In this document: positions 4,595 to 21,803 of the stretch, one piece after another
Position numbering within the stretch: the first letter of the stretch is position 1
How the letters are laid out: each line of letters opens with the position of its first letter
Program-made: the position numbers and the translations under genes
The notes under the pieces: generated by a model
What the model saw: the letters and a program-made list of their open reading frames with translations, nothing else
What the model was told of the DNA's origin: nothing
Database searches by the model: none
Source: Candidatus Methylomirabilia bacterium
Lineage (GTDB): Bacteria > Methylomirabilota > Methylomirabilia > Rokubacteriales > CSP1-6
Reading direction: 5' to 3'
NCBI GenBank assembly: GCA_041490825.1
Contig: JBGPTW010000004.1
Coordinates: 31,902 to 95,901, forward strand
DNA: 64,000 nucleotides

Positions 4595-5452
4595 GTGATG
4601 AAGGACCTGGCGGGCTCGTGCGTCAACGTTCCCGGCGTGTGGCCCATGTGCGAAGCGCCGTACATGCTGGAGCAAGGGCTCGCCTCACCCTCCCGCCTCG
4701 ACCTGATCGCCAGACGCTTCATCCGCATGGGTCCCTGCAAGACGCTGGACACGATCGGGGTCCCGTTGTTCACGAGCATCGGCCGGAACACCATCGACGG
4801 GTTTGCCTTCGACCTCCGCGTCCCCGAGCTGTGCCATAAGCTGATCCGAGACGGCCGCCTCGGCAGGTCCGCCAACCAGGGCGTCTATCTGTATCGTGAC
4901 GACCGGCCGGTCGACGACGCGCCGGAATACTATCTGACGCAGACGCCGCCTCCCTCTGGCGTGCGCTCGGACGACGCGAGCGTGTCCGAGCGGCTGATGT
5001 TTTCGATCTACTTCGCGATCCTGAAGATCGCGAGCATGGGGCTGTCCAGTGTCGGCGACCTCTGCCTAGGGATCACCGATCTGCTCGGCCTGAAGACGGA
5101 CCCGCTGGAAGAGCTGAGAAAGCTGGGAAGCGCCGGCCTGCGGGACGAGTTCGACCGTCTGCGGGCCGAGCCGGGGCCCCGCTATGGACTGCCGCCCGCT
5201 GGCGTCGATCATGGCCAGCCTGGACGACCGGTGACGTACCGCTTCGTGATCGCGGCCGTCCTCAACTGGATGGTGGTGGGCGCGCTGTTCGCCGTCGGGA
5301 TCCGCTATCTGGCTTCGAAGCGGGTCATGATCTACCACCTCCAGATCCTGGACGTGGCCTGGACCGACCTGACGCCGCGAACCCGGATCCTGATGCTGAC
5401 CTTGATGAAGGGAACGGCCCAGATCGCCCCACCCATGAGCGGAGACCGGTGA
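4595..5452 (+). CDS. Hypothetical protein. The N-terminal ~90 aa resemble the C-terminal domain of 3-hydroxyacyl-CoA dehydrogenase (no NAD-binding domain), followed by an uncharacterised hydrophobic C-terminal part.
   Basis: MGPCKTLDTIGVP...LIRDGRLGRSANQGVYLYRD resembles the 3HCDH C-domain (MGPFxLxDxVGLD...GxKxGxGFYxY). Its stop overlaps the next start (GTGA at 5449-5452). Confidence 0.4.
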   Translation: MMKDLAGSCVNVPGVWPMCEAPYMLEQGLASPSRLDLIARRFIRMGPCKTLDTIGVPLFTSIGRNTIDGFAFDLRVPELCHKLIRDGRLGRSANQGVYLYRDDRPVDDAPEYYLTQTPPPSGVRSDDASVSERLMFSIYFAILKIASMGLSSVGDLCLGITDLLGLKTDPLEELRKLGSAGLRDEFDRLRAEPGPRYGLPPAGVDHGQPGRPVTYRFVIAAVLNWMVVGALFAVGIRYLASKRVMIYHLQILDVAWTDLTPRTRILMLTLMKGTAQIAPPMSGDR

Positions 5453-6795
5453 GCCAGCTCTGCAGCGCCGTGGTTCGCCGGGGCTTTCGCTGGCTCAGCC
5501 GCGGTCTGCTCGCCCTGAGCCGGCTCCTGTACAAGCTGGAGATCGAAGGCGGGGAGAACCTCCCCGCGACGGGCCCGGTCATCCTCACCTGCCGGCACAA
5601 CTCGGGCTTGGACATCATCTTCTTCGCGGCGTTGGGCTTCATGACGGGTGAAGTGCCCCTTGCCGTGACGGGCGTCATCACCGTGAACCGCTTCCGGGCG
5701 TGGTTGGGCCGGAATCTTGGATTGGTTCCCTTGTTCCGGGAACAAGGCCTGTCGGCCGCTTCCCTCATGAGCCTGCACAAGAAATTGCGGCAGGGGGGTA
5801 TGGTCTTCATCGCCGACAACGAGATCCCCTGGGACGGCCGCCTCCGGACGCCCCGCTCCGGGGTCGCTTGGTGCGCCTTGCGCACTCATGCCCCGGTCGT
5901 CGTGGCGGTGCTCAATGGGGGCTACCGGATCGCTCCGCGCTGGGCCCAGCGGATTCCCCTGCGCGGAAAGCTGGCGCTGCGCATCGGGAAGCCGTTCCAT
6001 CTCTCCGACGCTCCGTGCGACCGAGTGACCAATGAGATGTTGCAGGCGGCCAACCGGCGTTTCGTCGACGAGATGCTGGCGCTTTCCGACCCCGCGCTGG
6101 TCAGCGAGGAGCACCCCAGATGCAAGGGCATCCCGAGCCTCCTGTGGCAATGCCCGATCTGTCACGAGGACGAGGCCCTCTACCACCGGACGCCCTGGTC
6201 CAAGCCCGCGGAGGTCCAGTGCCGCCACTGTGGGACCGGCTGGGTCGTGGAGCGGTTCCGGGACGATGATTATCACCTGAAGGTCGTGCAGGGAAACCCG
6301 ACGACGCTCGGCCAGGAGCGCTCGTTGGCCGCCTGGTACGACGTCATGAAGGCCGGGTTACGGCTGGTGCCGCAGGAAGACCCGGCGGTGGCTCTGGACG
6401 CCGGTGAAGAGCTCTACCTCCGCAGCCGGGAGGCGTGGCTGGAGGTAGAGGCGGACAATCCGCTTTTCCGCCACTGGGACGGCGAGGACGCTCCGCGGGA
6501 GCAGGCGAGCAACCTCGGCCCGAGCCTCATGACGCGCTGGGATCGCGGGCGGCTGTTCTTGACGAGCGAGCGGTTCATCTGGGTGGGCCGTCGCGGCCGG
6601 CTGAACTTTCCGCTCACCAAGCTGCACTCCACCCACCTCCAGACCATCCTGTTCTTCGGCTTCCTGTACGGAGTGCGCCGGTACCGCTTCAGCTTTCGAG
6701 GGGATAGCCTGCTGAGATGGCTGACGTACACCGCGCTGGTCGCGCAACGCGTCGAGCAGATCCACGGCCATCGCATCAGCACGACCAACTACTGA
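5449..6795 (+). CDS. Lysophospholipid / 1-acyl-glycerol-3-phosphate acyltransferase (PlsC/LPLAT family) with a ~250 aa C-terminal extension containing a CxxC...CxxC zinc ribbon.
   Basis: HxxxxD acyltransferase motif (CRHNSGLD), FIADNEIPWDGRL and PVVVAVLNGGYRIAP blocks. C-terminal extension has CPICHEDE...CRHCGTGW. Confidence 0.75.
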   Translation: MSQLCSAVVRRGFRWLSRGLLALSRLLYKLEIEGGENLPATGPVILTCRHNSGLDIIFFAALGFMTGEVPLAVTGVITVNRFRAWLGRNLGLVPLFREQGLSAASLMSLHKKLRQGGMVFIADNEIPWDGRLRTPRSGVAWCALRTHAPVVVAVLNGGYRIAPRWAQRIPLRGKLALRIGKPFHLSDAPCDRVTNEMLQAANRRFVDEMLALSDPALVSEEHPRCKGIPSLLWQCPICHEDEALYHRTPWSKPAEVQCRHCGTGWVVERFRDDDYHLKVVQGNPTTLGQERSLAAWYDVMKAGLRLVPQEDPAVALDAGEELYLRSREAWLEVEADNPLFRHWDGEDAPREQASNLGPSLMTRWDRGRLFLTSERFIWVGRRGRLNFPLTKLHSTHLQTILFFGFLYGVRRYRFSFRGDSLLRWLTYTALVAQRVEQIHGHRISTTNY

Positions 6796-6893
6796 ACCAG
6801 CCGCGGGCGCCCGCCCGGCGCTCCTCCGCCGCCACGCCACTGACCGCCGCGATCTGAGCCGAGGCGAACCCCGCGGCCCTCGCATCGCCGCCT

Positions 6894-8237
6894 TCAGTCT
6901 GGCGACGAACGGGTCCCCGCCAGGGCAGACGACATGGTCGACTCCGGAGGGATCTGATACCGCTCCGTGTACCAGGAGAATTTGTCGTCGATCATCTGGC
7001 GATCGAGCCCGAAGAGCTCCAAATTGTACCGGTGTTCGCCGTGCTTGTGCTGGGGATGCGCTTTCAGCCACGCCGTTGCCCGCGCTTCGAACTCGGGGGT
7101 GTAGGGGTAGCCGAAGTGCGCGTACAGGCGCTGCACCGCTCCGAGCGGATCCGCGACCAGCTCCTGGTAACGCATATCGTAGATACGGCCTGGCTCGGCG
7201 TGCGCTCGCGCCGCCTCGACGCGCCGCAGCGCCTCCGCGACCCAACTGATCACCACCGGCCCCACGGCGCCGCGCCGTGCCGGGTCTTCGGTCATCGAAT
7301 CATCCGTCATCAGATGATGGATGACACCCAGGAAGCTACACATTGATCCAATGGCACGGGACGGGTCGCGGTGAATCAGGACGATGGCCGCATCCGGGAA
7401 GACCGTCAGCAGCGCCTCGATCGCGTACGAGTGGATCGGCGCCTTCAACAACCAGTGCCCGTCGTGGGGCCGCCGCCAGTGGAGAAGTTGCAATTGCTCA
7501 CGGTACTCGCAGTAGGCTGCCTCGAAGACCTTGGCGGGCTGTCGCAGAAACCAATCGCGATATATCGGAGATACCTGCGCTGCAAGAACAAACGTGTTCA
7601 GCAGGAGCAAAACGCATTCTTCCGGCCCCTCCGGGTCAAGGTCGTGGATCTTGCGCAACCCGGGAGCCATGAACGTGAGCACTTTGGCGAAACGCTGGGC
7701 GTGTTTGATCCGCGGATCGCGGCCCCGGTCGATGTCCGCGGGACGCCGCGCTGGCATCATCGTTTCCCAGGCCAGGAGCGGACGGGCATGCGGATCCTGC
7801 GCCAGCAGCTTGTGCAGGAAGGTCGTTCCCGTGCGTGCCAAGCTGGCAATGAAGATCGGTCGTCGAATCGATACGCACAAAATCTCAGGGTGTCGCTTCA
7901 ACTCGTTCGTGATCAGGAGGCGGTTCACCAATGCGCTGAATATTTTGCGCCGTATCGTGAGACGGGCGAAGCACTTGAGCCCGCTCTCTTCGTTATGTGA
8001 TTGGATGAGCGTTCGCAGCGGGATCCGAAATCCGTCACCACCGAAATCCGAGAGACCGGTTTTCCGCTGGGCGGCACGCAGCAGGCTTTCTTCAGAAAGC
8101 CGGTCAATCGGAGCTCCGAGCGCCCGAAGCGCCCCTCCCGCGGCGTTCAGAAGCGTGACGATTCCAGAAACCAGCGCCGGCAACTGGGAACGCCCCGCTC
8201 GCTGTGGATGGCTCATGACGGTGGGTGGCGGGCACAA
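6894..8237 (-). CDS. Sulfotransferase (Sulfotransfer_3-like, PAPS-dependent).
   Basis: The 5'-PSB loop LARTGTTFLHKLLAQDP is present, and the C-terminal region is sulfotransferase-like. Confidence 0.75.
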   Translation of the reverse strand: MCPPPTVMSHPQRAGRSQLPALVSGIVTLLNAAGGALRALGAPIDRLSEESLLRAAQRKTGLSDFGGDGFRIPLRTLIQSHNEESGLKCFARLTIRRKIFSALVNRLLITNELKRHPEILCVSIRRPIFIASLARTGTTFLHKLLAQDPHARPLLAWETMMPARRPADIDRGRDPRIKHAQRFAKVLTFMAPGLRKIHDLDPEGPEECVLLLLNTFVLAAQVSPIYRDWFLRQPAKVFEAAYCEYREQLQLLHWRRPHDGHWLLKAPIHSYAIEALLTVFPDAAIVLIHRDPSRAIGSMCSFLGVIHHLMTDDSMTEDPARRGAVGPVVISWVAEALRRVEAARAHAEPGRIYDMRYQELVADPLGAVQRLYAHFGYPYTPEFEARATAWLKAHPQHKHGEHRYNLELFGLDRQMIDDKFSWYTERYQIPPESTMSSALAGTRSSPD

Positions 8238-8242
8238 ATACG

Positions 8243-9247
8243 CTACGGCAGGCTCCCTTCAGCTACTCCCCAGGTCATGGCGCTCATCGCCCACGAGTAC
8301 CCGACACCGAATCCGGCCATCACGCACCTCTGGCCAGGCCGGAAGAGTCCCCGATCCATGCCGCGACGAATCAAGAGAGGAATCGAAGCGCTCACCGTGT
8401 TGCCGACATCCTCAACATCGATGGGCAGTTTCTCATCTGGAATCTTCATCACCGCCTGCAGGCGTTGCAACAGGAAGCGATTTGCCTGGTGGAACAAGAA
8501 CAGGTCTACCTCGTCCCACCCAACTTCCAGCCGGTCCAGTAGCTGCTGGATACCAACCTTGACGGCAGACAGCGTAAAGCTGAAGACCTCCGGCCCGTTC
8601 ATGTAAAGATAGGTGTCACCTCTGGCGCTGCTTTTTGGCAACCGTGCGCCACCGGCACGGACAATGAGATTGCTTGCGCCCCTCCCATCGGTCCCGACCA
8701 CCGTTGGCCCCAGGGTGCCGATGCTCCCGGCGGGCGCTGCGCTGATGAGGGCGGCCGCCCCGGCGTCGCCAAAGATCGGCGCGGTTGTGAGGTCATCGGG
8801 ATCGCAGTATTTCGAGTACGTGTCAGCAACGATGAGCAGCACGTTGCTGACAGCGTTCGATAGTATGAGCGAACGTGACAGCCAGAGACCATACGTGAAG
8901 CCAGAGCAGCCGAGATTGTAGTCGAACGCGCCACAATGTGTGGGCAGTCCCAACCGTTCCTGGAGCAGGCAAGCCGTAGTCGGCAAGAAGAAGTCAGGGG
9001 ACTGCGTGCAGAAGATGAGGGCCCCGATCGTGTCCCGGTCGACCGAGAGCTCGTCCAGGAGTCGTTCTGCCGCGCGGTATCCCAAGTCGCCGGCGGTCTG
9101 ATCAACCGAGGCGATTCGCCGGCTACGGATACCCGTCTTCTCGTAGAACTTGGCCGGATCCCAGGTCCGATGAACGGCGGCCAAGTCCTCGTTCCTACGG
9201 ACCTGCTCGGGCAGACAATACTGAATCCCCCGTAGGTAGGCGCTCAT
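8243..9247 (-). CDS. fabH: 3-oxoacyl-ACP synthase III (FabH-like KAS III).
   Basis: 334 aa. Cys-His-Asn triad in context: GCSGFTYG, FLFHQANRF, VGNTVSASIPL. The ATGA overlap with the upstream ACP gene at 9244-9247 suggests co-transcription. Confidence 0.8.
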   Translation of the reverse strand: MSAYLRGIQYCLPEQVRRNEDLAAVHRTWDPAKFYEKTGIRSRRIASVDQTAGDLGYRAAERLLDELSVDRDTIGALIFCTQSPDFFLPTTACLLQERLGLPTHCGAFDYNLGCSGFTYGLWLSRSLILSNAVSNVLLIVADTYSKYCDPDDLTTAPIFGDAGAAALISAAPAGSIGTLGPTVVGTDGRGASNLIVRAGGARLPKSSARGDTYLYMNGPEVFSFTLSAVKVGIQQLLDRLEVGWDEVDLFLFHQANRFLLQRLQAVMKIPDEKLPIDVEDVGNTVSASIPLLIRRGMDRGLFRPGQRCVMAGFGVGYSWAMSAMTWGVAEGSLP

Positions 9248-9492
9248 GATAACTTGCCAGCGGCCGAGAGAAGATCGAGGATGCCTTGCACGGACTGCAC
9301 CTTGCTCGTTTCGCTTGGATTCAGGTGAACCTCAAACTCGGTGTTCAACCAATAGAGCACGTTCATGGTACCCATCGAGTCCCAGGCTATGAGGTCGCGG
9401 GACGTGGTATCCTTCTCAATGGCTTCCGGATCGACCGCGAGCACTTCCGCAAGCTTGCGCATGACCTCTTCTTTGGAACACATTTCAGGCAT
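9244..9492 (-). CDS. Acyl carrier protein-like (phosphopantetheine carrier), with a DSM-type attachment site.
   Basis: 82 aa, acidic. DLIAWDSMGTMNVLYWL resembles the DSL serine motif of ACPs. Confidence 0.55.
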   Translation of the reverse strand: MPEMCSKEEVMRKLAEVLAVDPEAIEKDTTSRDLIAWDSMGTMNVLYWLNTEFEVHLNPSETSKVQSVQGILDLLSAAGKLS

Positions 9493-9498
9493 GTGCCG

Positions 9499-10950
9499 TC
9501 ACGCCGGGAGAACCCGCATCAGTTCTTCGGACAACTCGGCGACAAAGGCCCTCGGCCCATATCCAAGGCTCAATGTCAGGGAGCCGTCAAACTGGCTCGC
9601 CGCCATCCCCACCATCCCCAGGGAGGCGACCCGAGCCATCCGCCGGGCTTTCGCTCCTCCGCTCATAAACGCGGCCGAGATGCCTGTCCCTCCGAAGCTG
9701 AGGCGATCGGGTTCAAGCTCACCGAGGTCTGTGAATATCACCCTACCCGTCACTTCGCGCTCGAGAATCCTTGGATTTCGGTAAAGAGCGCCCCGCGCCA
9801 CACGCTTTATGCACCAATAGAGGATGAGCCCCACCATGGGCCCGACGATCGGCAGCCCTTCAACAGCAAGGCTGCTGAGCGGTAGGCCAAAGTACTCCCC
9901 CCGCTGGGCCTGCATCTGATCTCGTACCTGCTTCACCACCCCGTCGAGCGATTCCCCCGATTGCGAATCAATAAATATGACGACGACCCCGTTGAGATTG
10001 CACAGTCCCGATGCGTGCTTCGAGGCCAGATGGCGGCGCAGGTCCACGGCAACGGTGATCGGCAAGGGCCGGTCTGAAGACTGGGGCCGCGCATGGCAGA
10101 TGGTAAGGTAGAGGGCCGCCACCAACACTTGACTCATTGTCGTCCGTTGCCGGAGCGCATATTCAAAGATGCCGCGCACCCGGACAGGGTCCAGCCTCAG
10201 GTGAACAAACTCTAGGACGGCATTCTGTGACCTCGGGAACTTCCAGGTCCCAATGGTTGGGACCAGTTTCCTCAAGACGCTCAGAGATTGCCGAGATACG
10301 CGCAGCCTTTCGCGCAAGCTGAATCGGTCGCGCAGTTGTTGCACTCCCCGGCGGCCGTCCACGTTCGGCGCCGGCGCATAGTCCGGATCGTCACTGAGTC
10401 GGTTATAGACGTCGGCCAACAGGTATACATAGTCCTTCGTGGCCCCACCGTCGCCGGCGCGATGGTCGAGCTTGACGCAAAGCAGATCGGTGTCGCCACG
10501 CAATAACAAGACCCGGAGAGGCAAGTCGGGCCGGAGTTTGACAAAATCCTCCACGTCTGCCGGGCAATTCGAGCTTTCTCGGAACTCACAGGATTCCGCG
10601 CGGTCGAGATCGTCGCGGCGGTGCCAAGAGGGGCGAAACCAGTGTTCAACCCAACGGCAGGCGAGAATTGGCTCCGCGTCCAACGTCAGCCTGACGGCTC
10701 TGACCAGGCGATCCGCATCGATGCGACCGGCGAAGGACACGAAACAATGTGTACCCGTGTAGTCAGGAGCCGCCGCGGAGATGACACGATCGAATAACTC
10801 CGACTCGAACCGCGTTGGCATTGCTGAGGCATGAGTGCGGCCCGAGGCCCGTTGTTCCCTGAATCCGGGCGGTATCGGAATGACCTTCTCCTCGGCGTTC
10901 GCCTTTGCGGTCATTTCAGGAACGACAATGTGCCCCTTCCCCGCCTGCAC
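9499..10950 (-). CDS. Condensation-domain-like acyltransferase (PapA / WS-DGAT / NRPS C-domain fold).
   Basis: 483 aa. Motif LDHRAGDGG matches HHxxxDG with the catalytic second His retained. It is first in a tight minus-strand operon with the ACP, fabH and sulfotransferase genes. Confidence 0.55.
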   Translation of the reverse strand: MQAGKGHIVVPEMTAKANAEEKVIPIPPGFREQRASGRTHASAMPTRFESELFDRVISAAAPDYTGTHCFVSFAGRIDADRLVRAVRLTLDAEPILACRWVEHWFRPSWHRRDDLDRAESCEFRESSNCPADVEDFVKLRPDLPLRVLLLRGDTDLLCVKLDHRAGDGGATKDYVYLLADVYNRLSDDPDYAPAPNVDGRRGVQQLRDRFSLRERLRVSRQSLSVLRKLVPTIGTWKFPRSQNAVLEFVHLRLDPVRVRGIFEYALRQRTTMSQVLVAALYLTICHARPQSSDRPLPITVAVDLRRHLASKHASGLCNLNGVVVIFIDSQSGESLDGVVKQVRDQMQAQRGEYFGLPLSSLAVEGLPIVGPMVGLILYWCIKRVARGALYRNPRILEREVTGRVIFTDLGELEPDRLSFGGTGISAAFMSGGAKARRMARVASLGMVGMAASQFDGSLTLSLGYGPRAFVAELSEELMRVLPA

Positions 10951-11144
10951 CGCGCTTGCTGACGCTCACCACGAATAGCTTCGATCCCGTGCTTGACACG
11001 CCCTTGGCTGGCTCGCCTTGACCACACGAGAGTGCCCCCTGGATACCCTTTCTGTCAAGGTTGCGTCTCGCGCCGCAACCGTTTCGGAAGTGGACGCTCG
11101 GAGGTCGCCGGAACGATGCGGAGATGGGCGTTTACCCGTGATCC

Positions 11145-11478
11145 GGCCGCTCGGCTATCTTCGCCAGGATCTCCGTCGCTTCTGGACCTACGCAGCATCG
11201 CGTGGGCGGGCGGGCATCTCCTGCAGTGGCTCGGGCGCGCCAGCCACAGCCGTCTGGAGCCGTTCAAGAAACTCGCCCGGCTGCTGCGCGCCCATCTCGA
11301 CGGCGTGCTGGTCTGGACGAAGCTCCGTGTCAGCAACGGCGCGCTCGAAGGCAGGAACAACAGGGTCAAGGTCATCAGCCATCGAGCGTACGGCTATCGG
11401 ACGACGTGGACGTACGTCGAACATCTACCACTGCTGCGCGGGCCTCCCACTCCCGTGACACTTTCGGGAGACGAGCCT
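11145..11478 (+). mobile_element. ISL3-family transposase 3'-terminal remnant (copy 1, two frameshifts) including the terminal inverted repeat.
   Basis: Reads LRQDLRRFWTY / LLQWLGRASHSRLEPFKKLARLLRAHLDGVLVWTKLRVSNGALEGRNNRVKVISHRAYGYRTTW / NIYHCCAGLPLP across three frames. The IS end GGCTCGTCTCCCGAAAGTGTCACGGGAG lies at 11451-11478. Copy 2 at 24902-25320 on the opposite strand is nearly identical. Confidence 0.8.
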
Positions 11479-11525
11479 GAAAAAGCAGATAGGGGAGTGA
11501 GCTTCGTCGCTCGCTTCGGCCCGCG

Positions 11526-12062
11526 TTACTTCCTGATGAAGACCATGCGAGCGTGCTCGGGGGCGTCCTGTCCGGGCACTCTCAACGTCGAATCGACTAC
11601 GAGCACGTTGCCGTCTTCGGAGAGATGCTTCACGTCTGTGCCTTCGACGGTTTCCGTCTTCCCGTTCCGCGTGTGCGTGCCCTTGTGCTCGGTGACGAGG
11701 GCCGCTCCTTCCCAATGGGACCGAGACACCACCTTGTCTCCTCGTGGCGTCAGGTTCGACACCTCGCGCCCGTCGGTATAATAGGTCGACGTGACCGTCC
11801 GATGGATCCCCATGATGTTGAACTGGCGCTCCATCTTCAGCGTCACCCCCTGATGGTCGATGACGAAAATCAGTGCAACCGAGACCGCTGAGGCGCGGGA
11901 GGGGAGGACGCTGCGACTCCTGTCCAGCTCCCACGTGCCGGAGAGGTTCGCGGGCGACTGGGCGTGCGCCGGAAGGCCGGCGAACAGAAGGACACCGAGC
12001 AAGGCAACCGTGGCATGGGTGAGGTTCATCCGGCACTCCTTCTCAGAGGGGCCTACGATCAA
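11526..12062 (-). CDS. Hypothetical secreted protein with an N-terminal signal peptide.
   Basis: 178 aa. Hydrophobic leader LLGVLLFAGLPAHAQS, no recognisable domain. Confidence 0.4.
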   Translation of the reverse strand: MIVGPSEKECRMNLTHATVALLGVLLFAGLPAHAQSPANLSGTWELDRSRSVLPSRASAVSVALIFVIDHQGVTLKMERQFNIMGIHRTVTSTYYTDGREVSNLTPRGDKVVSRSHWEGAALVTEHKGTHTRNGKTETVEGTDVKHLSEDGNVLVVDSTLRVPGQDAPEHARMVFIRK

Positions 12063-12145
12063 CTATAACAACGTGCGGGCGGCCCTGGGGTTTCCCCGGA
12101 GAGTTTCTTCGGCCGTGATGCCGCCAGACGGGCCAGCGAACGACT

Positions 12146-12910
12146 GTGCTTGTCGCTGACGACCACACGTTTGCCGCCAGGCTTGCCGAATCGGCCGGCC
12201 GGCTGCTGCTCGAGCTACGGCATGAGCCGCCGGCCGGCATCGACGTCGGCGCGGCGGGCGACCGAGCGTCACATCAGTTTCTCGTCGAGGCCATTCATCG
12301 TCGCCATCCGGTCGATGCGATCCTGTCCGAAGAGGCGGCGGACGACGTCAGCCGACTGACCGCCGACCGCGTATGGATCATCGACCCGCTCGATGGCACC
12401 CGAGAGTTCTCGGAAGACGGCCGCGAAGATTGGGCGGTTCACGTGGCATTGTGGCAACGAGGCGCGCTGGCCGCAGGGGCGGTCGCCCTGCCGGCTCGAG
12501 CCATGGTGTCCTCGACTGCCTCTTCCCTCCGCCCAGTCGTCGCGACCATCGATGAGCCGCTGCGGTTCCTCGTCAGCCGCACGCGCCCGCCAGGCATCGC
12601 TGCCCACGTTGCCCGCGCCATGGGCGCGCGACTGATCCCGATGGGCTCGGCCGGCGCCAAGACCATCGCCGTCGTCCTGGGCGAAGCCGACGCCTACATC
12701 CACGCGGGCGGGCAGTACGAGTGGGACTCTGCTGCGCCCGTAGCGGTGGCCGCCGCGGCCGGCCTGCACGCATCTCGACTCGACGGTAGCGCCCTCCGCT
12801 ACAATCAGCGAGACCCCAGTCTCCCCGATCTCCTCGTGTGTCGACCCGACTTGGCCGATGCGCTCCTGCGTGCCATCGCGTTGGCGACGGAGACGCCCGG
12901 TATCCCATGA
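12146..12910 (+). CDS. cysQ: Inositol-monophosphatase-family 3'(2'),5'-bisphosphate nucleotidase (CysQ-like PAP phosphatase).
   Basis: WIIDPLDGT and EWDSAAP motifs of the IMPase/CysQ superfamily. The start may lie a few codons upstream. Confidence 0.7.
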   Translation: MLVADDHTFAARLAESAGRLLLELRHEPPAGIDVGAAGDRASHQFLVEAIHRRHPVDAILSEEAADDVSRLTADRVWIIDPLDGTREFSEDGREDWAVHVALWQRGALAAGAVALPARAMVSSTASSLRPVVATIDEPLRFLVSRTRPPGIAAHVARAMGARLIPMGSAGAKTIAVVLGEADAYIHAGGQYEWDSAAPVAVAAAAGLHASRLDGSALRYNQRDPSLPDLLVCRPDLADALLRAIALATETPGIP

Positions 12911-13077: not shown

Positions 13078-13332
13078 TCAGGCGTTGGCCTCTTTGTTCG
13101 CGATTGCCGTCTTCAGAAAGTCGACGGCATCCTGGACGGTCCTGATCTTCTGGGCTTCCTCTTCCGAGATATTCACGTCAAAGGTATTCTGGAGCGCCGT
13201 GATGATCTCCACGAGATCGATGGATGTGGCGTTGAGGTCGTCGATGAACATCGCTGTCGGGACGACGTCCTCGGGCTTCACGTCCAGGATCTCCAGCACG
13301 ATCTCTTTCACCTTCTCTTCCGCAGTCGCCAC
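13078..13332 (-). CDS. acpP: Acyl carrier protein.
   Basis: A GTG start at 13332 is preceded by the strong SD AAGGAGGA. DLNATSIDLVEIITAL is ACP helix II with the Ser attachment site. Confidence 0.7.
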   Translation of the reverse strand: MATAEEKVKEIVLEILDVKPEDVVPTAMFIDDLNATSIDLVEIITALQNTFDVNISEEEAQKIRTVQDAVDFLKTAIANKEANA

Positions 13333-13366
13333 GAAGTCCTCCTTGTTCGAGCAGCGTTGATGTCGT

Positions 13367-14593
13367 TCAGGGTTTGCTGAAGATGAGGCAGGCGTTGGTC
13401 CCGCCGAGTCCAGCATTGAAGGTCATCGCCGTTTCCAGTGGGACCTTCATGATCGATTGCACGTGGGGGACGCCCTCGCAGTCGGGCGCGATCCGCTCCA
13501 GATTGACCGTCGGCGCGACGAAGCCGTGGCGCAACATCAGCAGGGTGAAGATCGCCTCGTGGGCCCCGGTCGCGCCGAAGGAGTGCCCGGCCAGAGCCTT
13601 GGTGGAGCTGACGAGCGGAGAAGTGGTGCCGAACATCTCTCTGATGACCCGCACCTCGAGCGCGTCGTGAACCATGGTCCCGGTCCCGTGTGAATTGATG
13701 TAGTCGATGCGCTGCACCCCGTGCTCCTCGGCGGCCGCCATGGCTTGCCGCAGGGACTCCTTGAGCCCGTCACCGGAGGGGTGGAACATATCGAAGCCGT
13801 CGTTGCTGGAACCATAGCCGACGACCTCGGCATAGGGAGCGGCGCCCCGCTGTAGGGCGTGGTCCCGAGCTTCCAGCACGAGAATGCCCGCTCCCTCTGA
13901 GAGGACCGTCCCCTCCCGGTCTTGGTCGTAGGGGCGGCAGGCCCGTTCAGGATAGGCGTTCCACGACTTGGGCATTCCCCCCCAGTTGTCCAGGCAGCCC
14001 CAAACCTGACGCAAGGAGCTTTCTTCAGTCGCCCCGCAGAGAGACACATCCGCCATCCCGCGGCCGATGAGCTCATAGGCATGACCGATGGCGTCCGTGC
14101 CCGTACAGAACGAGGAGCATAGGCCGTAAGTTCTCCCCTGCACCCCGAGCCAGGCGGCAAGGTTGCCCGCTGCTGTCGAGTGCATGGCCTTGAGGAGCCC
14201 CGCCGCGCCGACACGGAGGGGGTTTTTGTGCTGTTGAAGCATGCGCTCGCCGTTGAAGATCTGGTTGATCCCGCCGAAGCTCGTCCCGACCACAACGGTA
14301 GCCCGGTCGGTCTTGAGCGCTTCCGGAGGAAGCTTGGCGTCGTCGATAGCCTCCGAGGCCGCGACGGCGGCAAATCTGGCCACGTTCGACATTGTCAGCA
14401 GCGTCCGCTTGCCGATCCAGGCCGTGTTCAATCCCTTGACGCGTCCACCCACGTGGCAGTGGAACCCCAGCTCTTTCATTTCAGGAATGAATTCGATTCC
14501 CGAGCGGCTCTCCCGGAGAGAGCTCAGCACCGCCTCCTTGTTGTTCCCGATGCAAGAGACGACGCCGAGCCCGGTAACGAGGACCCGCCTCAT
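13367..14593 (-). CDS. Beta-ketoacyl-ACP synthase I/II (FabF/FabB-like), copy 3.
   Basis: MRRVLVTGLGVVS start overlaps the upstream KAS stop (ATGA). Active-site Cys in SSFCTG, plus SHGTGT and GHSFGATG His motifs. Confidence 0.8.
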   Translation of the reverse strand: MRRVLVTGLGVVSCIGNNKEAVLSSLRESRSGIEFIPEMKELGFHCHVGGRVKGLNTAWIGKRTLLTMSNVARFAAVAASEAIDDAKLPPEALKTDRATVVVGTSFGGINQIFNGERMLQQHKNPLRVGAAGLLKAMHSTAAGNLAAWLGVQGRTYGLCSSFCTGTDAIGHAYELIGRGMADVSLCGATEESSLRQVWGCLDNWGGMPKSWNAYPERACRPYDQDREGTVLSEGAGILVLEARDHALQRGAAPYAEVVGYGSSNDGFDMFHPSGDGLKESLRQAMAAAEEHGVQRIDYINSHGTGTMVHDALEVRVIREMFGTTSPLVSSTKALAGHSFGATGAHEAIFTLLMLRHGFVAPTVNLERIAPDCEGVPHVQSIMKVPLETAMTFNAGLGGTNACLIFSKP

Positions 14594-15804
14594 GCGGCAT
14601 CCTTCCGCAGCACGAGGCACGTGTTGACGCCGCCGAAGCCGAACGCGTTGCTCGCGGCCACGTCGATCCTGGCCTCGATAGCTCGGTTTGCGACCAGGTT
14701 GATGCCTCCACACCGCGGATCGAGCTCGTCCAGGTTGATATTGGGGGCCACGAACTGGTTTCGCATCATGAGGAGGGTATAGATCACTTCGCTGCTGCCG
14801 CAGGTCGCCAGCTCGTGGCCCGTCATGGATTTGGTCGAGCTGACGTACGGCTGCTTCCCAAATACCTCGGCAATGGCCCGGGCCTCGGAAACGTCGCCGA
14901 CCGGCGTCGACGTCGCGTGAGCGTTGACGTAATCGATCTCGTCCGGTCTGACGCCCGCATCTTGAAGTGTCTGCCGCAGGCAGCGGACGCTTCCCTCCCC
15001 CGAAGGGATGGTCATGTCGTTTCCGTCGCTGGTGAAGGCGTAGCCGATCAGCTCGGCGTATATTTTGGCACCCCGGCGGCGCGCCTCCTCCAGCTCTTCG
15101 AGGATGAGGAGCCCGCTGCCCGCCGACGGGACGAGCCCGTCCCGGTGCTTGTCAAAGGGTCTGGACGCCTTCGTCGGGTCGTCTTCCCGAACGGAGAACG
15201 CCTTCAAGGCATCGAAATGGCAAAAGGCCTCCCACGTGTCCTCCTGGACCCCTCCCGCGATCGCCCGGTCCTGGAGTCCTCCCCGGATCAGCTGAAAGGC
15301 CTGTCCGATCGCTGCGGCGCCCGTCGCACAGGCGGCCGAGACGGTGAGGGTATAGCCGCGAGTCCCCAGAAGGACGGAGAGATTGGCGGAGGTCGTGTCT
15401 GCCATCACTCTTTGCAGCGCCGTTCCTCCAAGCTTGAGTCCCTCGTCCCGAAACATGTGGCACTGCCGGTACGTATCCTGAGCGTTCCCCGCGTTGCCGA
15501 TGATGACGGCCGTTCGGTCGCTCTGGATCCGCGCCGGCTCCCACGCAGCGTCCTCGATCGCCTGCCGGACCGCGTGCACGCCGAAGCATGTGCCGGGCCC
15601 CATCTGGCGCAGATTCCGCTTGGGAACGTCGGGAGGTTCCACGCCCGGGATCACCCCCGCGAGGCTGCTGCGGAAACCGAGGGCCTTCCTCTCCGGAATG
15701 AGCCCGATGCCCGAGCGGCCTGCCTGAAGGGCCGCGAGAACATCCCGCTGATTGTTTCCAAGACAGCTGATGATACCCATTCCGGTGATTACCACGCGGC
15801 GCAT
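14590..15804 (-). CDS. Beta-ketoacyl-ACP synthase II (FabF-like), copy 2.
   Basis: MRRVVITGMGIIS start. Motifs SAACATG, NAHATSTPVGD, GHELATCG. Confidence 0.8.
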   Translation of the reverse strand: MRRVVITGMGIISCLGNNQRDVLAALQAGRSGIGLIPERKALGFRSSLAGVIPGVEPPDVPKRNLRQMGPGTCFGVHAVRQAIEDAAWEPARIQSDRTAVIIGNAGNAQDTYRQCHMFRDEGLKLGGTALQRVMADTTSANLSVLLGTRGYTLTVSAACATGAAAIGQAFQLIRGGLQDRAIAGGVQEDTWEAFCHFDALKAFSVREDDPTKASRPFDKHRDGLVPSAGSGLLILEELEEARRRGAKIYAELIGYAFTSDGNDMTIPSGEGSVRCLRQTLQDAGVRPDEIDYVNAHATSTPVGDVSEARAIAEVFGKQPYVSSTKSMTGHELATCGSSEVIYTLLMMRNQFVAPNINLDELDPRCGGINLVANRAIEARIDVAASNAFGFGGVNTCLVLRKDAA

Positions 15805-15947
15805 CTATCACCTCAGTGTGCTGCGGGCGATCCGGCGTCACTAGGGTCAGGTCCTGCGCTCTCGACAGGCCGGGGATTATGCTGCAGCGTACTGCCCTTT
15901 GCACCTCGAAACGTCCTGTACCGACGGTCGGTGGCCATGGTTTGCCG

Positions 15948-16709
15948 TCACATGTACATACCGCCATCGACCCTGATCACCTGCCCGGTGATGTATGCGG
16001 ATCGATCGGACGCCAGGAACGCGACGGCCGCCGCGACCTCGCTGGGCTGCCCGACTCGCCCGAGCGGGATCATGGGCAGATACGACTCGTGGGAGATCGA
16101 AGCGGTGGCGTCCGTGACGATGAAGCCCGGCGAGACCACGGTCACCGTGATATTCCTCGAAGCGAGTCTCACGGCCAGAGACCTGGTGAACCCGATCAGG
16201 CCGAACTTGGTGGCCGAGTGGTCCACGAAGGTGTTACCGAGATCTCCGCCGACGCTCCCGATACTGATAATTCGTCCCCGGGGAAGCTCGCGCTCGATCA
16301 TGAACTTGACGACCGGTTTCGTGCAGTTGTACACGCCGGTCAGGTTTGTCGCGACGGCCTGATCCCAGTCCTCGTCGGCCACGCTCCCGGTCGGGTGAAG
16401 CGGCTCCGCGGAGTTCTGCGCGGGAAGTGCCCTCGCGACCGCCGCGTTGTTCACGAGAACGCTGACGGGCCCCGCCTCGGCCGTGAGCTCGTCGACCGCC
16501 TGGGCGACCTGGGCCCGCTGCGAGACGTCGAAGCGTTTGATCAGGCACGACCCGCCGCGCGCCTCGATGACGCCCCGGACCTCTTCGGCCGCCGCCTTGT
16601 TCTTCAGATAGTTGACGACCACGCGATAGCCATCGGCGGCCAGTCGAACAGCGATCGCCCTCCCGATCCCCCGGGAGGCGCCGGTGACCAGCGCGACAGG
16701 CGTGCTCAC
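15948..16709 (-). CDS. 3-oxoacyl-ACP reductase (FabG-like SDR), paralog 2, with His in place of the catalytic Tyr of YxxxK.
   Basis: [16 protein letters not shown] Rossmann motif. The GTG start at 16709 overlaps the dehydratase stop (GTGA). The active-site region reads DHSATK where NYAAAK is expected. Confidence 0.75.
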
Positions 16710-17194
16710 GGTGTCGTGCCCTGAGCCGGCAGGCCGGCCGTCGGACCGCCACGACGGCCCACGAGCCCCTTGAGCGTGAAGGTGGCCAGCAGCTCGTTGC
16801 GCTGGTTCTTGATTTCTCCCCTGACGACGATCAGCCCCCGCGTCTGATCGAGCTCCGTCAGTCTGATCACTTCGCCCTCCGTGTGAATCGTGTCCCCGAT
16901 CTTTGCAGGCGCCACGAATCGGACCTTTTCGACCCCGTAGAGGGCGATCGTCGACTTGGGCAGCAGCGTGAACTGTGCCCGTAGGAGGAGGGCGCTTCCG
17001 ACCGTCAGCACCAAGAGCCCGTGCGCGATCCGCTCGCCAAAGGGCGACTGTTTGGCGTACTCGGCGTCGGTATGGACCGCGAGCCAGTCGCCGGTGAAGG
17101 CCGCGAAGAGGACGATGTCCGTCTCGGTCAGGGTCCGACCCGGGCTCAGCGCCTTCTCGCCTACGCGGCAATCCTCGAAGAACTCTCTGTCCAT
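16706..17194 (-). CDS. MaoC-like (R)-specific enoyl-ACP/CoA hydratase or dehydratase (hot-dog fold), copy 2.
   Basis: [14 protein letters not shown]...RIAHGLLVL is a MaoC dehydratase signature. Its ATG lies 1 nt after the upstream KAS stop. Confidence 0.7.
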
Positions 17195-17195
17195 G

Positions 17196-18425
17196 TCAGA
17201 GCTTCCTGAAAATGAGGCAGGCGTTAGCGCCACCCAAGCCGGCGTTAAACGACATGACCGTCCTCAGCGGCTGGACCAGCGGCGAGCGAACATGACGTAC
17301 ACCTTCGCAGTCCGGGGCCACGTGTTCCAGGTTCGCGGTTGGAATCACGAAACCGTGCTGCAGCATCAACAGGGTGAAGATCGCCTCGTGGGCGCCGGCC
17401 GCCCCCTGGGAATGGCCATTCAGCGGCTTGGTTGAGCTGACGAGGGGGGATGGGTCGCCGAAGACTTCTCGGATGACCTGGATCTCCACGGCATCGCCGC
17501 TTTTGGTGCCGGCCCCGTGCGGGTTGATGTAGTCGATTTCGACCGGCCCGTGCGTTTCTGCGGCGACACTCAGCGCCTGCCTGATCGCCCGGGTCAATCC
17601 GCCCACCTTCGGCTCGTACATGGAATCGCCGTTGTTGGCTGACCCGTACCCGATCATCTCGGCCACAATGGGCGCCCCGCGCCGCTCGGCCCCCTCGAGC
17701 GATTCGAGGAGGAGAATCCCGGCGCCGTCGGAGGCGACCATTCCTTGTCGGTCACGGTCATACGGGCGGCATGCCCGTTCCGGATGGGCGTCCACATTGG
17801 GCGGCATGACGCCGGAGGCCCCGTGAGTCGCCCAGGCGTTTCCCACACCGGGCGCCTCGGTCCCTCCACAGATGCACAAGTCGACGACCCCGTGGCGGAC
17901 CAGCTCGAACCCATGCCCGATACTGTCGGTCCCGGTGGTGCACGCCGTGGACACCGAGTAGCAGCGTCCCTTCACGCCGAGCCACGCGGCGAGGTTCAGC
18001 GTGGCGGTCGAATTCATCATGCGCACAATCGGTGCCGTCCCGATGCGCACCGGGCTCTTGTGGGCAAGAAGCGTGCGCTCGGCGGCCGCGGCCTCGTTGG
18101 GATCGCCTCCACCAGATCCCACGACGACGCCGGCTCTCGTGCTCCGCAACATCTCGAGCGGCAAACGCGCGTCCTGCAGGGCCTCGAGAGCTGCGACTGC
18201 CGCATACCTGGCGGTCGCGGACATCGTCTGAAGTTGCTTCTTGCCGATCCCGTTGGTGACCAGCCCCGCGACCAGGCCGGCCACGGGATGCTTGTAGCCC
18301 AGCTCCTGCATCTCGGGCACGACCCGCACCCCCGAGATCCCTTCCTGCAAACATCGCCACACCTCGGCCTTGTTGTTGCCCAGGCACGAAACGATCCCCA
18401 TCCCCGTCACGGCGACGCGTCTCAC
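17196..18425 (-). CDS. Beta-ketoacyl-ACP synthase I/II, copy 1.
   Basis: MRRVAVTGMGIVS start. Motifs VSTACTTG, NPHGAGT, GHSQGAAG. Confidence 0.8.
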   Translation of the reverse strand: MRRVAVTGMGIVSCLGNNKAEVWRCLQEGISGVRVVPEMQELGYKHPVAGLVAGLVTNGIGKKQLQTMSATARYAAVAALEALQDARLPLEMLRSTRAGVVVGSGGGDPNEAAAAERTLLAHKSPVRIGTAPIVRMMNSTATLNLAAWLGVKGRCYSVSTACTTGTDSIGHGFELVRHGVVDLCICGGTEAPGVGNAWATHGASGVMPPNVDAHPERACRPYDRDRQGMVASDGAGILLLESLEGAERRGAPIVAEMIGYGSANNGDSMYEPKVGGLTRAIRQALSVAAETHGPVEIDYINPHGAGTKSGDAVEIQVIREVFGDPSPLVSSTKPLNGHSQGAAGAHEAIFTLLMLQHGFVIPTANLEHVAPDCEGVRHVRSPLVQPLRTVMSFNAGLGGANACLIFRKL

Positions 18426-18435
18426 CTCGAGTTCC

Positions 18436-19170
18436 TCACATTAAGAGCCCGCCGTTGACGCGAATCACCTGCCCGGTGATGTAGGCTGCGTCGTCTGAGG
18501 CGAGAAAAGAAACCACTTGGGCGACCTCCTCAGGCCGGCCGACCCGCCCCATCGGGATTCTCTTCTCCAGCTCCGCCACAGGGAGGCTTCGGATCGCCTC
18601 GGTATCGATGAACCCCGGAGAGACCGCGTTGACGGTCAGCCCCGTGGAAGCCAGCTCGCGAGCGGCCGCCTTGGTAAAGCCGACAACGCCGGCCTTCGCC
18701 GCGGCATAGTTCGTCTGTCCGAGATTTCCCGTCTCTCCGACGAGGCTCGTGATGTTGATGATCCGCCGTCCCGGCCGTCGCCGACCCGCCATCGACATTA
18801 CTACCGCCTTCGTGCAGTAATACACACCGTTCAAGTCCGTGTCGATGACCGCGCGCCAAGCGTCGTGAGGCATCCGCATGAGAAGGTGATCGCGAATCGT
18901 GGCGGCGTTGTTGACGAGGACCTGGACGGGGCCCTCCGTGCGTGCGATGTTTTTCACCGCCGCCTCGACTTCCTCGGACTTCGAGACGTCGAAGCCGAGC
19001 AACACGGCTTGGCCGTTCTCGCCGACGATCAGGTTGCGCGTCTCTTCCGCCTCCTCCACACGCGTATGGTAATGGACCACGACCGCGAAGCCATCGCGCG
19101 CGAGCTGGAGCGCCACGGCTCTCCCGATCCCACGCGAGGCGCCGGTGACGATAGCGACCGGCTTATCCAT
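18436..19170 (-). CDS. fabG: 3-oxoacyl-ACP reductase FabG (canonical N-S-Y-K).
   Basis: [20 protein letters not shown] and NYAAAKAG motifs. Confidence 0.85.
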   Translation of the reverse strand: MDKPVAIVTGASRGIGRAVALQLARDGFAVVVHYHTRVEEAEETRNLIVGENGQAVLLGFDVSKSEEVEAAVKNIARTEGPVQVLVNNAATIRDHLLMRMPHDAWRAVIDTDLNGVYYCTKAVVMSMAGRRRPGRRIINITSLVGETGNLGQTNYAAAKAGVVGFTKAAARELASTGLTVNAVSPGFIDTEAIRSLPVAELEKRIPMGRVGRPEEVAQVVSFLASDDAAYITGQVIRVNGGLLM

Positions 19171-19585
19171 GGCTCACCTCGCCGTCAGCGAGACGGCGCC
19201 CGGCGAGGATCTTGCTCGTGTACGTCAAGATCTCCTCGTCCCGCTGGTTTTTCATGGAATGCGTCATCGCGATGAGACCGCGGCTCCGATCGACCTGGGT
19301 CGTCTGGGCCACCTCCGCTTCCACGTGGACCGTATCGCCGACCTTCGCACGAGACGCGAATCGCACCCGCTCGAGGCCCCAGAGGGCGATGGTGGATCGA
19401 GGGATCCCCCGATCGCCCGCAAGGAACATCAGGCCGCCGCTGATGACCAGGGGGCAGAGGTCGTGGGCGAGCGAGTGCCCGGCCAGCGCCTCGAACACCA
19501 CGAGGTCGGTTTCCGTGATCGTTCGTGCCGGGGTGAGCACACGGTCGCCGACGTGGAAATCCTCGAAGTAAGCCTGTTCGCTCAT
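19163..19585 (-). CDS. MaoC-like dehydratase (hot-dog fold), copy 1.
   Basis: 140 aa. YFEDFHVGDRV...TETDLV is MaoC-like. It overlaps the fabG start by 8 bp. Confidence 0.7.
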   Translation of the reverse strand: MSEQAYFEDFHVGDRVLTPARTITETDLVVFEALAGHSLAHDLCPLVISGGLMFLAGDRGIPRSTIALWGLERVRFASRAKVGDTVHVEAEVAQTTQVDRSRGLIAMTHSMKNQRDEEILTYTSKILAGRRLADGEVSHG

Positions 19586-19601
19586 TCGCGGGTGTTCGCG
19601 C

Positions 19602-20633
19602 TCATTCCGGAACTAGTACCAACTTCCCGAACGCCTCGCGCTGCTCCAGCAGCTGATGGGCGCGTCGGGCCTCCTTCAACGGCAGGACCCGGTCCAACAC
19701 AGGCTTCAGCTTCCCGTCGTTGACCATCTGGCTGATCGGAAACATCCAGGCCTTGCTTCCCGTCGTCGCGCCCAGGATCTTGAGATTCCGGAAGAAGACG
19801 TGGCGCAGGTCCGTCTTCGGAAGATACCCGGACGTGGCCCCGCACGTGACGAGCCGCCCGCCCACCGTCAGGCAGAGCAGGCTCCGCTCCCACACGTCCT
19901 CGCCGATGTGCTCGACCACCACGTCCACGCCCCGCTTCTTCGTGATCCGGCGCACCTCGTGCAGGAAATCGTGGGTTTTGTAGTTGATCCCGTAGTGCGC
20001 CCCCAAGGCCTTGGCCTTCTCGACTTTCTCGTCGCTCCCCGCCGTCGTGATGATGTTCGCGCCCACCATCCGGGCCAGCTGGATCGCTGCGCTGCCGACG
20101 CCGCTTCCCCCCGCGTGGATCAACACCCACTCCCCCGGCTCGAGCTTGGCCTTCGCGAAGATCATGTTCCAGGCGGTCCCAAAGGCCGCCGGAAGACAGG
20201 CGGCGATCTCGAAGGGCGTCTCGTCGCGAAGGGCAACCATGTTCTGAGCGGGCACCCTCACGAACTGCGCGTAGCCTCCGGGCAGGTGCTCCCCGATCAG
20301 CTGATAGCCGGGGCAGAGGTTGTCCCACCCCGACAGGCAGCGCTCGCACCGACCGCAGCTCACTCCGGGAGCGACGACCACCCGAGTCCCGGGGGCTAGC
20401 GCCTTGGTATTGGGACCGATGGCGGCTACCTCGCCGGCGATATCCACCCCGGGGATGAACGGGAAGTGAACCTTGAGGAACGGAAGGCCCTTGCGCATCC
20501 ACAGGTCCACTTGGTTGACCCCGCACGCCCGGACTCGGACAAGGACTTCGCCCTCGGCCGGCGCGGGATCCGGCAGGTCGCCGTAGGTCAGGACGTCGAT
20601 TCCGCCATGCTCGTTCAGGTAGACGGCCTTCAT
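19602..20633 (-). CDS. Zn-dependent medium-chain dehydrogenase/reductase (quinone oxidoreductase / enoyl reductase-like), tandem paralog A.
   Basis: 343 aa MDR fold: structural-zinc motif GCGRCERC and GGSGVGSAAIQLA NAD(P)-binding loop. Confidence 0.8.
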   Translation of the reverse strand: MKAVYLNEHGGIDVLTYGDLPDPAPAEGEVLVRVRACGVNQVDLWMRKGLPFLKVHFPFIPGVDIAGEVAAIGPNTKALAPGTRVVVAPGVSCGRCERCLSGWDNLCPGYQLIGEHLPGGYAQFVRVPAQNMVALRDETPFEIAACLPAAFGTAWNMIFAKAKLEPGEWVLIHAGGSGVGSAAIQLARMVGANIITTAGSDEKVEKAKALGAHYGINYKTHDFLHEVRRITKKRGVDVVVEHIGEDVWERSLLCLTVGGRLVTCGATSGYLPKTDLRHVFFRNLKILGATTGSKAWMFPISQMVNDGKLKPVLDRVLPLKEARRAHQLLEQREAFGKLVLVPE

Positions 20634-21664: not shown

Positions 21665-21803
21665 CATGCGGCGGTGGACAGGCGCGCCAAGCGTCGCACC
21701 CGATGATTGTACTCGCCCTGCACGATCTTTGCTGAGGATCCGCTCCCCGCGACCGACGCTCTTCGTCGCAATACCGGGACCCAAACAACCCTTGATGGAA
21801 CTG

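Follow-up and report, generated by a model that had tools for sequence, protein, structure and literature searches.

A conserved four-gene operon with predicted acyltransferase, carrier protein, ketosynthase III and sulfotransferase genes, embedded in a lipid/polyketide cluster of a Methylomirabilota bacterium

Here we describe four adjacent minus-strand genes in a 64,000-nucleotide stretch of a Candidatus Methylomirabilia genome (contig JBGPTW010000004.1 of assembly GCA_041490825.1; the whole stretch is called the window below). They encode a stand-alone condensation-family protein that resembles the acyltransferase PapA5 (PapA-like below), an acyl carrier protein (ACP), a FabH-type beta-ketoacyl-ACP synthase III (KAS III) and a sulfotransferase of the type that uses 3′-phosphoadenosine 5′-phosphosulfate (PAPS). 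The four genes form a real, conserved operon, which is itself a sub-operon of a large lipid/polyketide cluster spanning at least 25 kb, or about 35 kb if the DNA beyond the window start is included. Based on the families of the encoded proteins, we propose with a probability of roughly 0.55 that the cluster makes an acylated, sulfated lipid or glycolipid by building an acyl chain on a carrier, transferring it with the PapA-type enzyme and adding sulfate. This route most likely resembles the mycobacterial sulfolipid pathway without being that pathway.

A first-pass annotation of this DNA, made from the letters alone, had placed the four open reading frames (ORFs) at 9499-10950, 9244-9492, 8243-9247 and 6894-8237 of the minus strand, and we confirmed all four there, with the motifs it had read in their translations. 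Two of the genes probably start further downstream. The PapA-like frame is open up to GTG 10950 (483 aa), and the nearest homologues start at a methionine that matches ATG 10914, probably the true start of a protein of 471 aa (9499..10914). The sulfotransferase probably starts at ATG 8216 and not at TTG 8237 (440 aa, 6894..8216): GTCATGAG at ATG 8216 is kept in the related loci L004 and L039, where the upstream DNA is unrelated to that of the window, and the gene call of the Joint Genome Institute (JGI) also has 440 aa. Loci labelled with L and a number are contigs used for comparison; a genome scan with the single 483-aa protein returned no relatives, and an alignment-based scan was needed to recover them. 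The ACP gene (82 aa, 9244..9492) and the KAS III gene (334 aa, 8243..9247) lie between the other two.

Translational coupling was claimed for the whole block, but only two of its three junctions are tight enough to suggest it. The PapA-like stop is separated from the ACP start by a gap of 6 nt, and the KAS III start overlaps the ACP stop codon in a 4-nt ATGA. The KAS III stop lies 5 nt from TTG 8237, but the third gap widens to about 26 nt because the sulfotransferase start is placed at ATG 8216. Purifying selection acts on all four genes, with ratios of non-synonymous to synonymous substitution (dN/dS) of 0.19-0.38 against relatives. Together with the recurrence of the PapA-like/ACP/KAS III order in the independent contigs L005 and L038, this selection indicates that the block is more than a chance arrangement.

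The 483-aa ORF, whose numbering we keep for residues, has a predicted chloramphenicol acetyltransferase (CAT)/condensation fold. Its AlphaFold2 (AF2) model, computed with the homologue alignment (pLDDT 81, pTM 0.83), is two-lobed and V-shaped as in CAT-like proteins. Foldseek matches the model to 248 entries of the PDB at E<=1e-3, headed by the PvdL C domain, PapA5, AzeD, TRI3 and E/C domains with a probability of 1.0 each. The model thus has the fold on which the first-pass call of a condensation-domain acyltransferase depended.

As to whether the protein belongs with the Condensation, WES_acyltransf or PapA profiles, the evidence points to PapA but stops short of membership. PapA_C (PF16911) is the sole Pfam match, and neither Condensation nor WES_acyltransf matches in Pfam at E<=0.1; no NCBIfam model matches either. 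The PapA_C match reaches 24.9 bits, short of the gathering score of 30, and covers the first half of the model only, and we therefore file the protein as PapA5-like and not as a PapA family member. A profile of 24 homologues searched against the PDB gives PapA5 as its best match (1q9j, E=8e-8), followed by condensation domains of non-ribosomal peptide synthetases (NRPSs). An identity as wax ester synthase/diacylglycerol acyltransferase (WS/DGAT) was rejected for want of a Pfam match.

The protein contains KLDHRAGDG, in which DHRAGDG, with H163 and D167, aligns with HHCMADG of PapA5. The D-H in place of H-H in HHxxxDG, pointed out earlier, is therefore present, but it is less telling than it seemed: the first histidine is not conserved in the family, where this position varies among D, S, N and A, whereas the second is found in 23 of 24 aligned homologues and the aspartate in all 24. 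A word-based search of 5.8 billion proteins with the 483-aa protein yielded 31 relatives only; the wider PapA-like family comprises 903 clusters (50% identity) that reach E<=1e-30.

The 82-aa protein (ACP82) passes the gathering score of Pfam PP-binding (PF00550; 24.2 bits against 20.8), and NCBIfam ACP models span its full length with scores below their cut-offs. Its AF2 model (pLDDT 89.5) has helices at residues 7-17, 39-53, 59-65 and 68-77, and the top Foldseek matches are E. coli ACP structures (TM 0.73-0.81). Both bear out an ACP four-helix bundle with a serine at the N terminus of helix II. This residue, Ser39 in AWDSMG, starts the helix and is the candidate phosphopantetheine attachment site. 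AWDS is invariant in seven homologues of ACP82 and the residue after the serine is M, V or I, so the DSM that had been singled out as a departure from DSL is real but not informative.

Judged by its sequence, the 334-aa protein is a KAS III, though not demonstrably the primary housekeeping FabH. Pfam ACP_syn_III and ACP_syn_III_C both match it, and it passes the subfamily model NF006829 (255.2 bits against a cut-off of 249), whereas its 211.7 bits on TIGR00747 (fabH) fall short of the cut-off of 292.1. In the PDB, 3gwa matches best (E=7e-88), and 1mzj, of the ZhuH/ZhuG system of R1128, is also among the matches. The intact Cys-His-Asn triad reported earlier was confirmed by alignment: C114, H253 and N283 are invariant among the homologues and align with C112, H244 and N274 of E. 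coli FabH. A dialkylresorcinol DarB/DarC identity was rejected, as only a weak C-terminal match to DarB was found.

The fourth protein matches Sulfotransfer_3 in Pfam with E=3.7e-38 (132.4 bits against a threshold of 27). Its translation contains a 5′-phosphosulfate-binding (5′-PSB)-like segment, ARTGTTFLHKLL, and a 3′-phosphate-binding (3′-PB)-like segment, HRDPSRAIGS, which we take to be the canonical PAPS-binding motifs. The PDB sequences that match it best are 2zq5 (6e-50, residues 44-414) and 2z6v (3e-45), presumably Stf1 of Mycobacterium tuberculosis and Stf9 of M. avium, although the database label is 'putative uncharacterized protein'. An STF9 paper is cited in PMC11576661. With this result, all four gene-family calls of the first-pass annotation (C-domain acyltransferase, ACP, KAS III and sulfotransferase) have survived the family and fold tests.

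The structural comparison also brings up another function for the 483-aa protein. The best TM-scores of its model (0.67/0.74) are to AzeD (8s6l) of Pseudomonas aeruginosa, a stand-alone condensation-family dehydratase of an NRPS pathway that dehydrates a free bicyclic carbamate (bioRxiv 10.64898/2026.07.17.738954). The two proteins share a stand-alone C-domain fold of ~430-470 aa in which the first histidine is replaced and the second retained, so a proven dehydratase also lacks the first histidine of HHxxxDG (bioRxiv 10.64898/2026.07.17.738954). The 483-aa protein could then be an AzeD-like dehydratase or eliminase, maybe acting on a sulfated hydroxyl with sulfate as the leaving group, as in CurM and OLS, to make a double bond in an ACP-bound or free chain. 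The presence in one operon of a sulfotransferase and a KAS III that generates beta-keto groups, with ketoreductase (KR) genes nearby, would fit such a reaction. Nonetheless, we consider it improbable. The profile search favours PapA5, while AzeD shows no profile similarity to the 483-aa protein at E<=1, and the sole Pfam match is to PapA_C. The sulfotransferase matches the mycobacterial 2zq5 and 2z6v, with no CurM-type chain among its PDB matches at E<=0.01, and the operon encodes no thioesterase. A CurM-type sulfotransferase-thioesterase release was rejected for these last two reasons.

If the product is instead an acylated, sulfated lipid or glycolipid, the route might run as follows. A cluster-encoded phosphopantetheinyl transferase (PPTase) would turn ACP82 into its holo form; an ACPS-type PPTase is encoded ~10 kb past the window start on the same contig. 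Given its family and its place beside the ACP, KAS III, whose decarboxylating triad is intact, would join malonyl-ACP to an acyl-CoA starter and leave a 3-oxoacyl chain on ACP82, as in the initiation modules that prime type II polyketide synthases (PKSs). The neighbouring ketosynthase (KS), KR, dehydratase (DH) and enoylreductase (ER) enzymes, a neighbourhood that is conserved, may reduce or extend this chain. Fold, motif and homology to PapA5 suggest that the PapA5-like enzyme could move the carrier-bound acyl group via His163 onto an acceptor that offers a hydroxyl or an amine. The Stf-like sulfotransferase would sulfate the acceptor or the product from PAPS, and acylation and sulfation could occur in either order.

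Sulfation of this kind leaves 3′-phosphoadenosine 5′-phosphate (PAP) as by-product, which the product of a nearby gene would remove. This gene (12146..12910, plus strand) encodes a CysQ-like 3′(2′),5′-bisphosphate nucleotidase (Inositol_P E=8e-31), and a copy with 76% identity is found in L004. Its best NCBIfam match is TIGR01331 (bisphos_cysQ), which at 95 bits stays under the cut-off of 229. The earlier reading of the block as starter unit, acyl transfer and sulfation is thus in keeping with the protein families, but the block sits within a larger cluster and its ACP/KAS III pair is separable from the other two genes.

This separability emerges from the related loci. Several samples yielded contigs that are identical to the window. 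The L005 contig (~85% nucleotide identity) carries the PapA-like, ACP and KAS III genes, spaced as in the window by 6 nt and an ATGA overlap, and ends after them. At the protein level, L005 and the window share 90% identity in KAS III and 74% in the PapA-like protein. In L038, the same three genes are followed by ER-KS-DH, and the 6-nt PapA-like/ACP junction is common to the window, L005 and L038. In L004, a metagenome-assembled genome (MAG) from NCBI, and in L039, the PapA-like gene is followed by the 440-aa sulfotransferase gene, and ACP and KAS III are gone.

Remnants of the KAS III 3′ end persist in both loci between the PapA-like stop and the sulfotransferase gene, at L004:11410-11460 (equivalent to window 8277-8227) and L039:1892-1998 (window 8424-8318). 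The deletion boundaries differ between the two loci, so deletion or decay removed ACP and KAS III and spared the genes on either side. The deletions mark the PapA-like and sulfotransferase genes as an evolutionarily stable pair, and ACP plus KAS III as one of at least two interchangeable carrier-loading routes.

Another set of genes accompanies the PapA-like gene where the pair is missing. In L004, an AMP-binding enzyme, a short-chain dehydrogenase/reductase (SDR) and a 100-aa protein are encoded divergently from it, and the same triad flanks homologues in Acidobacteriota MAGs, which at 47-49% identity are the closest genomic relatives of the PapA-like protein. Proteins of 100-105 aa lie beside AMP-binding/SDR genes at L002:13403-13705, L003:14340-14657 and L004:9052-9354. 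These proteins share GxxAxxDS[ML]xLV, in which DS[ML] aligns with Ser39 of ACP82, and a conserved AMSMxxSPF tail. Pfam gave PP-binding at E=0.12 in one of three such ~100-aa proteins and nothing in the other two; their sequences suggest a divergent carrier-protein family. Under our model, ACP and KAS III would be an exchangeable acyl-loading module, with the AMP-binding enzyme, the SDR and the 100-aa carrier-like protein standing by the PapA-like gene in relatives without the pair.

Several observations weigh against an acylated, sulfated product of this operon. As for co-occurrence of the four genes, the PapA-like/ACP/KAS III part is found in L005 and L038, within a narrow clade, but the complete four-gene order is seen only in window-identical contigs; L038 has no sulfotransferase after KAS III, and L004 and L039 have dropped ACP/KAS III and retained the other two genes. 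When 121 genes directly next to PapA-like genes at ~70 distinct related loci were assigned to Pfam families, no family-wide partner emerged: the neighbours are heterogeneous (SDR 7, PEMT/ICMT 5, AMP-binding 3). With PapA_C below its gathering score, the term acyltransferase rests on fold and motif, and the CAT/condensation fold also hosts epimerases, cyclases and the dehydratase AzeD. The original DNA upstream of the operon has been replaced by an insertion sequence (IS) fragment, and a promoter and terminator scan of 6600-12200 gave no signal above shuffled expectation. Finally, no acceptor-forming enzyme was identified.

The losses in L004 and L039 would also be expected of two independent modules that happen to lie side by side. 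ACP and KAS III would then prime only the adjacent type II fatty acid synthase (FAS)/PKS, and the PapA-like protein and the sulfotransferase would act on another substrate, with acyl-CoA or another carrier, and not ACP82, as the donor. The L038 locus, in which PapA-like/ACP/KAS III runs straight into ER-KS-DH without a sulfotransferase, is consistent with such a division, as are the two further ACPs in the cluster and the AMP-binding/SDR/carrier-like triad beside the PapA-like gene of L004. What argues for a common function is the linkage of the PapA-like gene to the pair: its 6-nt junction with ACP is shared by the window, L005 and L038, the PapA-like/ACP/KAS III order has held in three lineages despite rearranged surroundings, and the PapA-like and KAS III families also co-occur, within ~2-3.5 kb of each other, in distant loci of Bacillota type. 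On this evidence, we regard two separate modules as the main alternative, though a doubtful one.

More distant members of the PapA-like family are found in a variety of settings. Some of them favour a link between PapA-like proteins and sulfation. A PapA-like gene and a sulfotransferase gene of the 440-aa type occur together in L013 (a Desulfobulbia MAG, 40% identity) and L048 (a metagenome contig, 35%). In L006:1-9142, an NRPS gene with Sulfotransfer_3 between PP-binding and Condensation has as neighbours a GT28 glycosyltransferase gene and a PapA-like gene of 56% identity. The cultured Desulfonema magnum 4be13 encodes a PapA-like protein of 30% identity. In L018-L020, L067 and L084 (Bacillota-type, with 1-3 PapA-like copies), a KAS III gene with 36-39% identity lies within ~2-3.5 kb. 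Tandem arrays of 3-6 PapA-like paralogues, 25-30% identical to the window protein, are present in L014/L065, L016, L070/L071 and L077 (Bacillota, Syntrophomonas-type); by their sequences, these arrays look like an uncharacterised acyltransferase expansion in syntrophic Firmicutes.

The four genes had been described as a minimal cassette for starter unit, acyl transfer and sulfation. This description does not hold, since the block is neither minimal nor self-contained and is embedded in the large cluster. The cluster adds 4 KS, 2 KR, 2 DH and 2 ER genes, 2 ACPs, a PPTase, 2-3 sulfotransferases, the CysQ-like enzyme and IS remnants. Most of the chain-building genes lie in a type II FAS/PKS-like block on the minus strand (13078..21667), where Pfam, NCBIfam and JGI calls give ACP2, KSa, KSb, KR, DH, KSc, KR, DH, ER and ER.

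Beyond it, also on the minus strand, follow the second of two DedA/VTT proteins (21804-22460), an rve_3 integrase fragment (22492-23064) and a 592-aa polytopic membrane protein (23034-24809). The membrane protein is conserved in two related clusters; it has an N-terminal WDDF motif and no Pfam match. From ~25.6 kb on, the window contains ordinary chromosomal genes (an extracytoplasmic function (ECF) sigma factor, a MacAB/TolC-type exporter, UvrC, UvrB and Ppx). An Rfam scan of the whole window found no family at its gathering score.

On the other side of the operon and convergent with it, a 3HCDH-domain protein (284 aa) overlaps a PlsC-like acyltransferase (448 aa) on the plus strand (4595..6795; Pfam 3HCDH and Acyltransferase). 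Nearer the window start are the 3′ end of another sulfotransferase gene coupled to PEMT (152-712, plus strand), an ISAZ013 fragment (965-1420, minus strand), a UbiA/DPPR-synthase-like gene (1466-2374, plus strand), whose product passes the NCBIfam cut-off for decaprenyl-phosphate phosphoribosyltransferase, and a DedA/VTT gene (2717-3415, minus strand). Compared with its 340-aa orthologues in L004 and L005, a truncated sulfotransferase gene (3540-4214, minus strand) covers residues ~155-340 only. An ORF in another frame (3977-4675) overlaps it and hints at a frameshifted or truncated pseudogene.

The same contig continues beyond the window start (L094:1-8635) with genes for the ACPS-type PPTase, a 112-aa carrier protein, a KS, a 3HCDH_N protein, Polyketide_cyc2, an FAA hydrolase, a glyoxalase-like protein and a 596-aa FAD monooxygenase. 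Across the cluster, the UbiA-like protein, the two DedA proteins and the 592-aa membrane protein suggest a polyprenyl-phosphate-pentose glycosylation branch. For the membrane protein itself, our guess is a GT-C glycosyltransferase.

The region directly upstream of the operon has been rearranged. It holds an ISL3-family transposase fragment (10993..11781, plus strand) in which only the C-terminal part of the domain is left (DDE_Tnp_ISL3 E=1e-16, profile positions 165-236 of 240). In two assemblies of identical sequence, a break occurs 314 nt upstream of the PapA-like gene, and such a break in short-read assemblies suggests more than one copy of the ISL3 element in the genome. The region upstream of the operon also encodes a 178-aa protein that has a single hydrophobic segment, at its N terminus. 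In all, three transposase or integrase fragments (ISL3, ISAZ013 and rve_3) interrupt the cluster. The composition of the block differs from its surroundings as well: its G+C content of 0.54-0.62 and its G+C at third codon positions (GC3) of 0.69-0.75 are lower than in most of the neighbour genes measured (GC3 mostly 0.75-0.87).

An IS fragment abutting the operon, the lower G+C, the truncated sulfotransferase nearby and the deletions inside the block in relatives are what a decaying, recently transposed and non-functional remnant might leave. We find this very hard to credit, as all four frames are intact with their catalytic residues kept, dN/dS against relatives is 0.19-0.38, and identical copies come from several samples.

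An operon with a proposed role in making an acylated, sulfated lipid invites comparison with the sulfolipid-1 pathway of M. tuberculosis, which consists of Stf0, PapA2, PapA1, Pks2, FadD23 and MmpL8. In both, a PapA-type acyltransferase and a PAPS sulfotransferase would lead to an acylated, sulfated lipid with a carrier-bound acyl donor (proposed here from the genes), and the 483-aa protein has PapA5 as its best relative of known structure. The differences are substantial. The sulfotransferase resembles 2zq5 and 2z6v, not Stf0. A type II KAS III, a free-standing ACP and type II KS, KR, DH and ER enzymes stand in place of a type I Pks and FadD; the KS genes of the cluster encode free-standing type II enzymes that match Pks2 at the domain level only. 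The host is not an actinobacterium, and the PapA_C match is below the Pfam threshold. No Stf0-type trehalose sulfotransferase, type I Pks2, FadD23, MmpL8 or trehalose-related gene was seen in the window, and no MmpL in the cluster. Because these components are absent and PapA_C stays below threshold, the block falls outside the sulfolipid-1 system.

The presumed Stf1 and Stf9 resemble our sulfotransferase over its full length (6e-50 and 3e-45), belong to the same Sulfotransfer_3 family and share the PAPS-binding motifs, but identity is only moderate. Their own natural substrates are poorly defined, and homology therefore points to no substrate for the present enzyme.

Two further systems offer partial parallels. 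In the R1128 pathway, ZhuH and ZhuG are a KAS III and a dedicated ACP that form the initiation module of a type II PKS and select a non-acetate starter. Here too, a triad-bearing FabH-type enzyme lies next to its own ACP with further type II ketosynthases alongside; unlike ZhuH/ZhuG, the pair sits between an acyltransferase and a sulfotransferase, and the nearest solved KAS III is not ZhuH but 3gwa, a Burkholderia structural-genomics protein. The rhizobial Nod-factor genes nodFE, nodA, nodH and nodPQ likewise bring together a special ACP and ketosynthase, an acyltransferase and a PAPS sulfotransferase, with sulfate-activation or PAP-handling genes nearby. NodE, however, is a KAS II, NodA belongs to an unrelated acyltransferase family and the present cluster has no chitin-oligosaccharide synthase, so the likeness is one of analogy, not homology.

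For the combination of PapA-like protein, ACP, KAS III and sulfotransferase itself, searches of the literature library available to us returned general mycobacterial reviews only and no description, in agreement with the earlier claim that this architecture had not been described.

To our knowledge, sulfate-ester lipids made by bacterial PAPS sulfotransferases are well documented almost only in mycobacteria, where they shape the envelope and the interaction with the host. We tentatively raise the possibility, which we think more likely to fail than to hold, that the cluster is the first PapA/Stf-type sulfolipid pathway outside Actinobacteria. It would make a novel, possibly multiply sulfated acylated lipid or glycolipid with a chain built on type II enzymes and primed by KAS III and ACP, and the polyprenyl-phosphate-pentose branch may supply its head group. 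Until its product is known, the cluster is of modest practical value. If the proposal is true, a PapA5-like enzyme, Stf-like sulfotransferases, a PAP phosphatase and a private fatty-acid line in bacteria of soil or sediment would carry sulfolipid chemistry to a different phylum, and an uncharacterised family of ~900 clusters of stand-alone condensation-like proteins would gain a function. The locus also offers a natural experiment in module exchange, in which KAS III and ACP have apparently been swapped for an acyl-AMP ligase with its own carrier.

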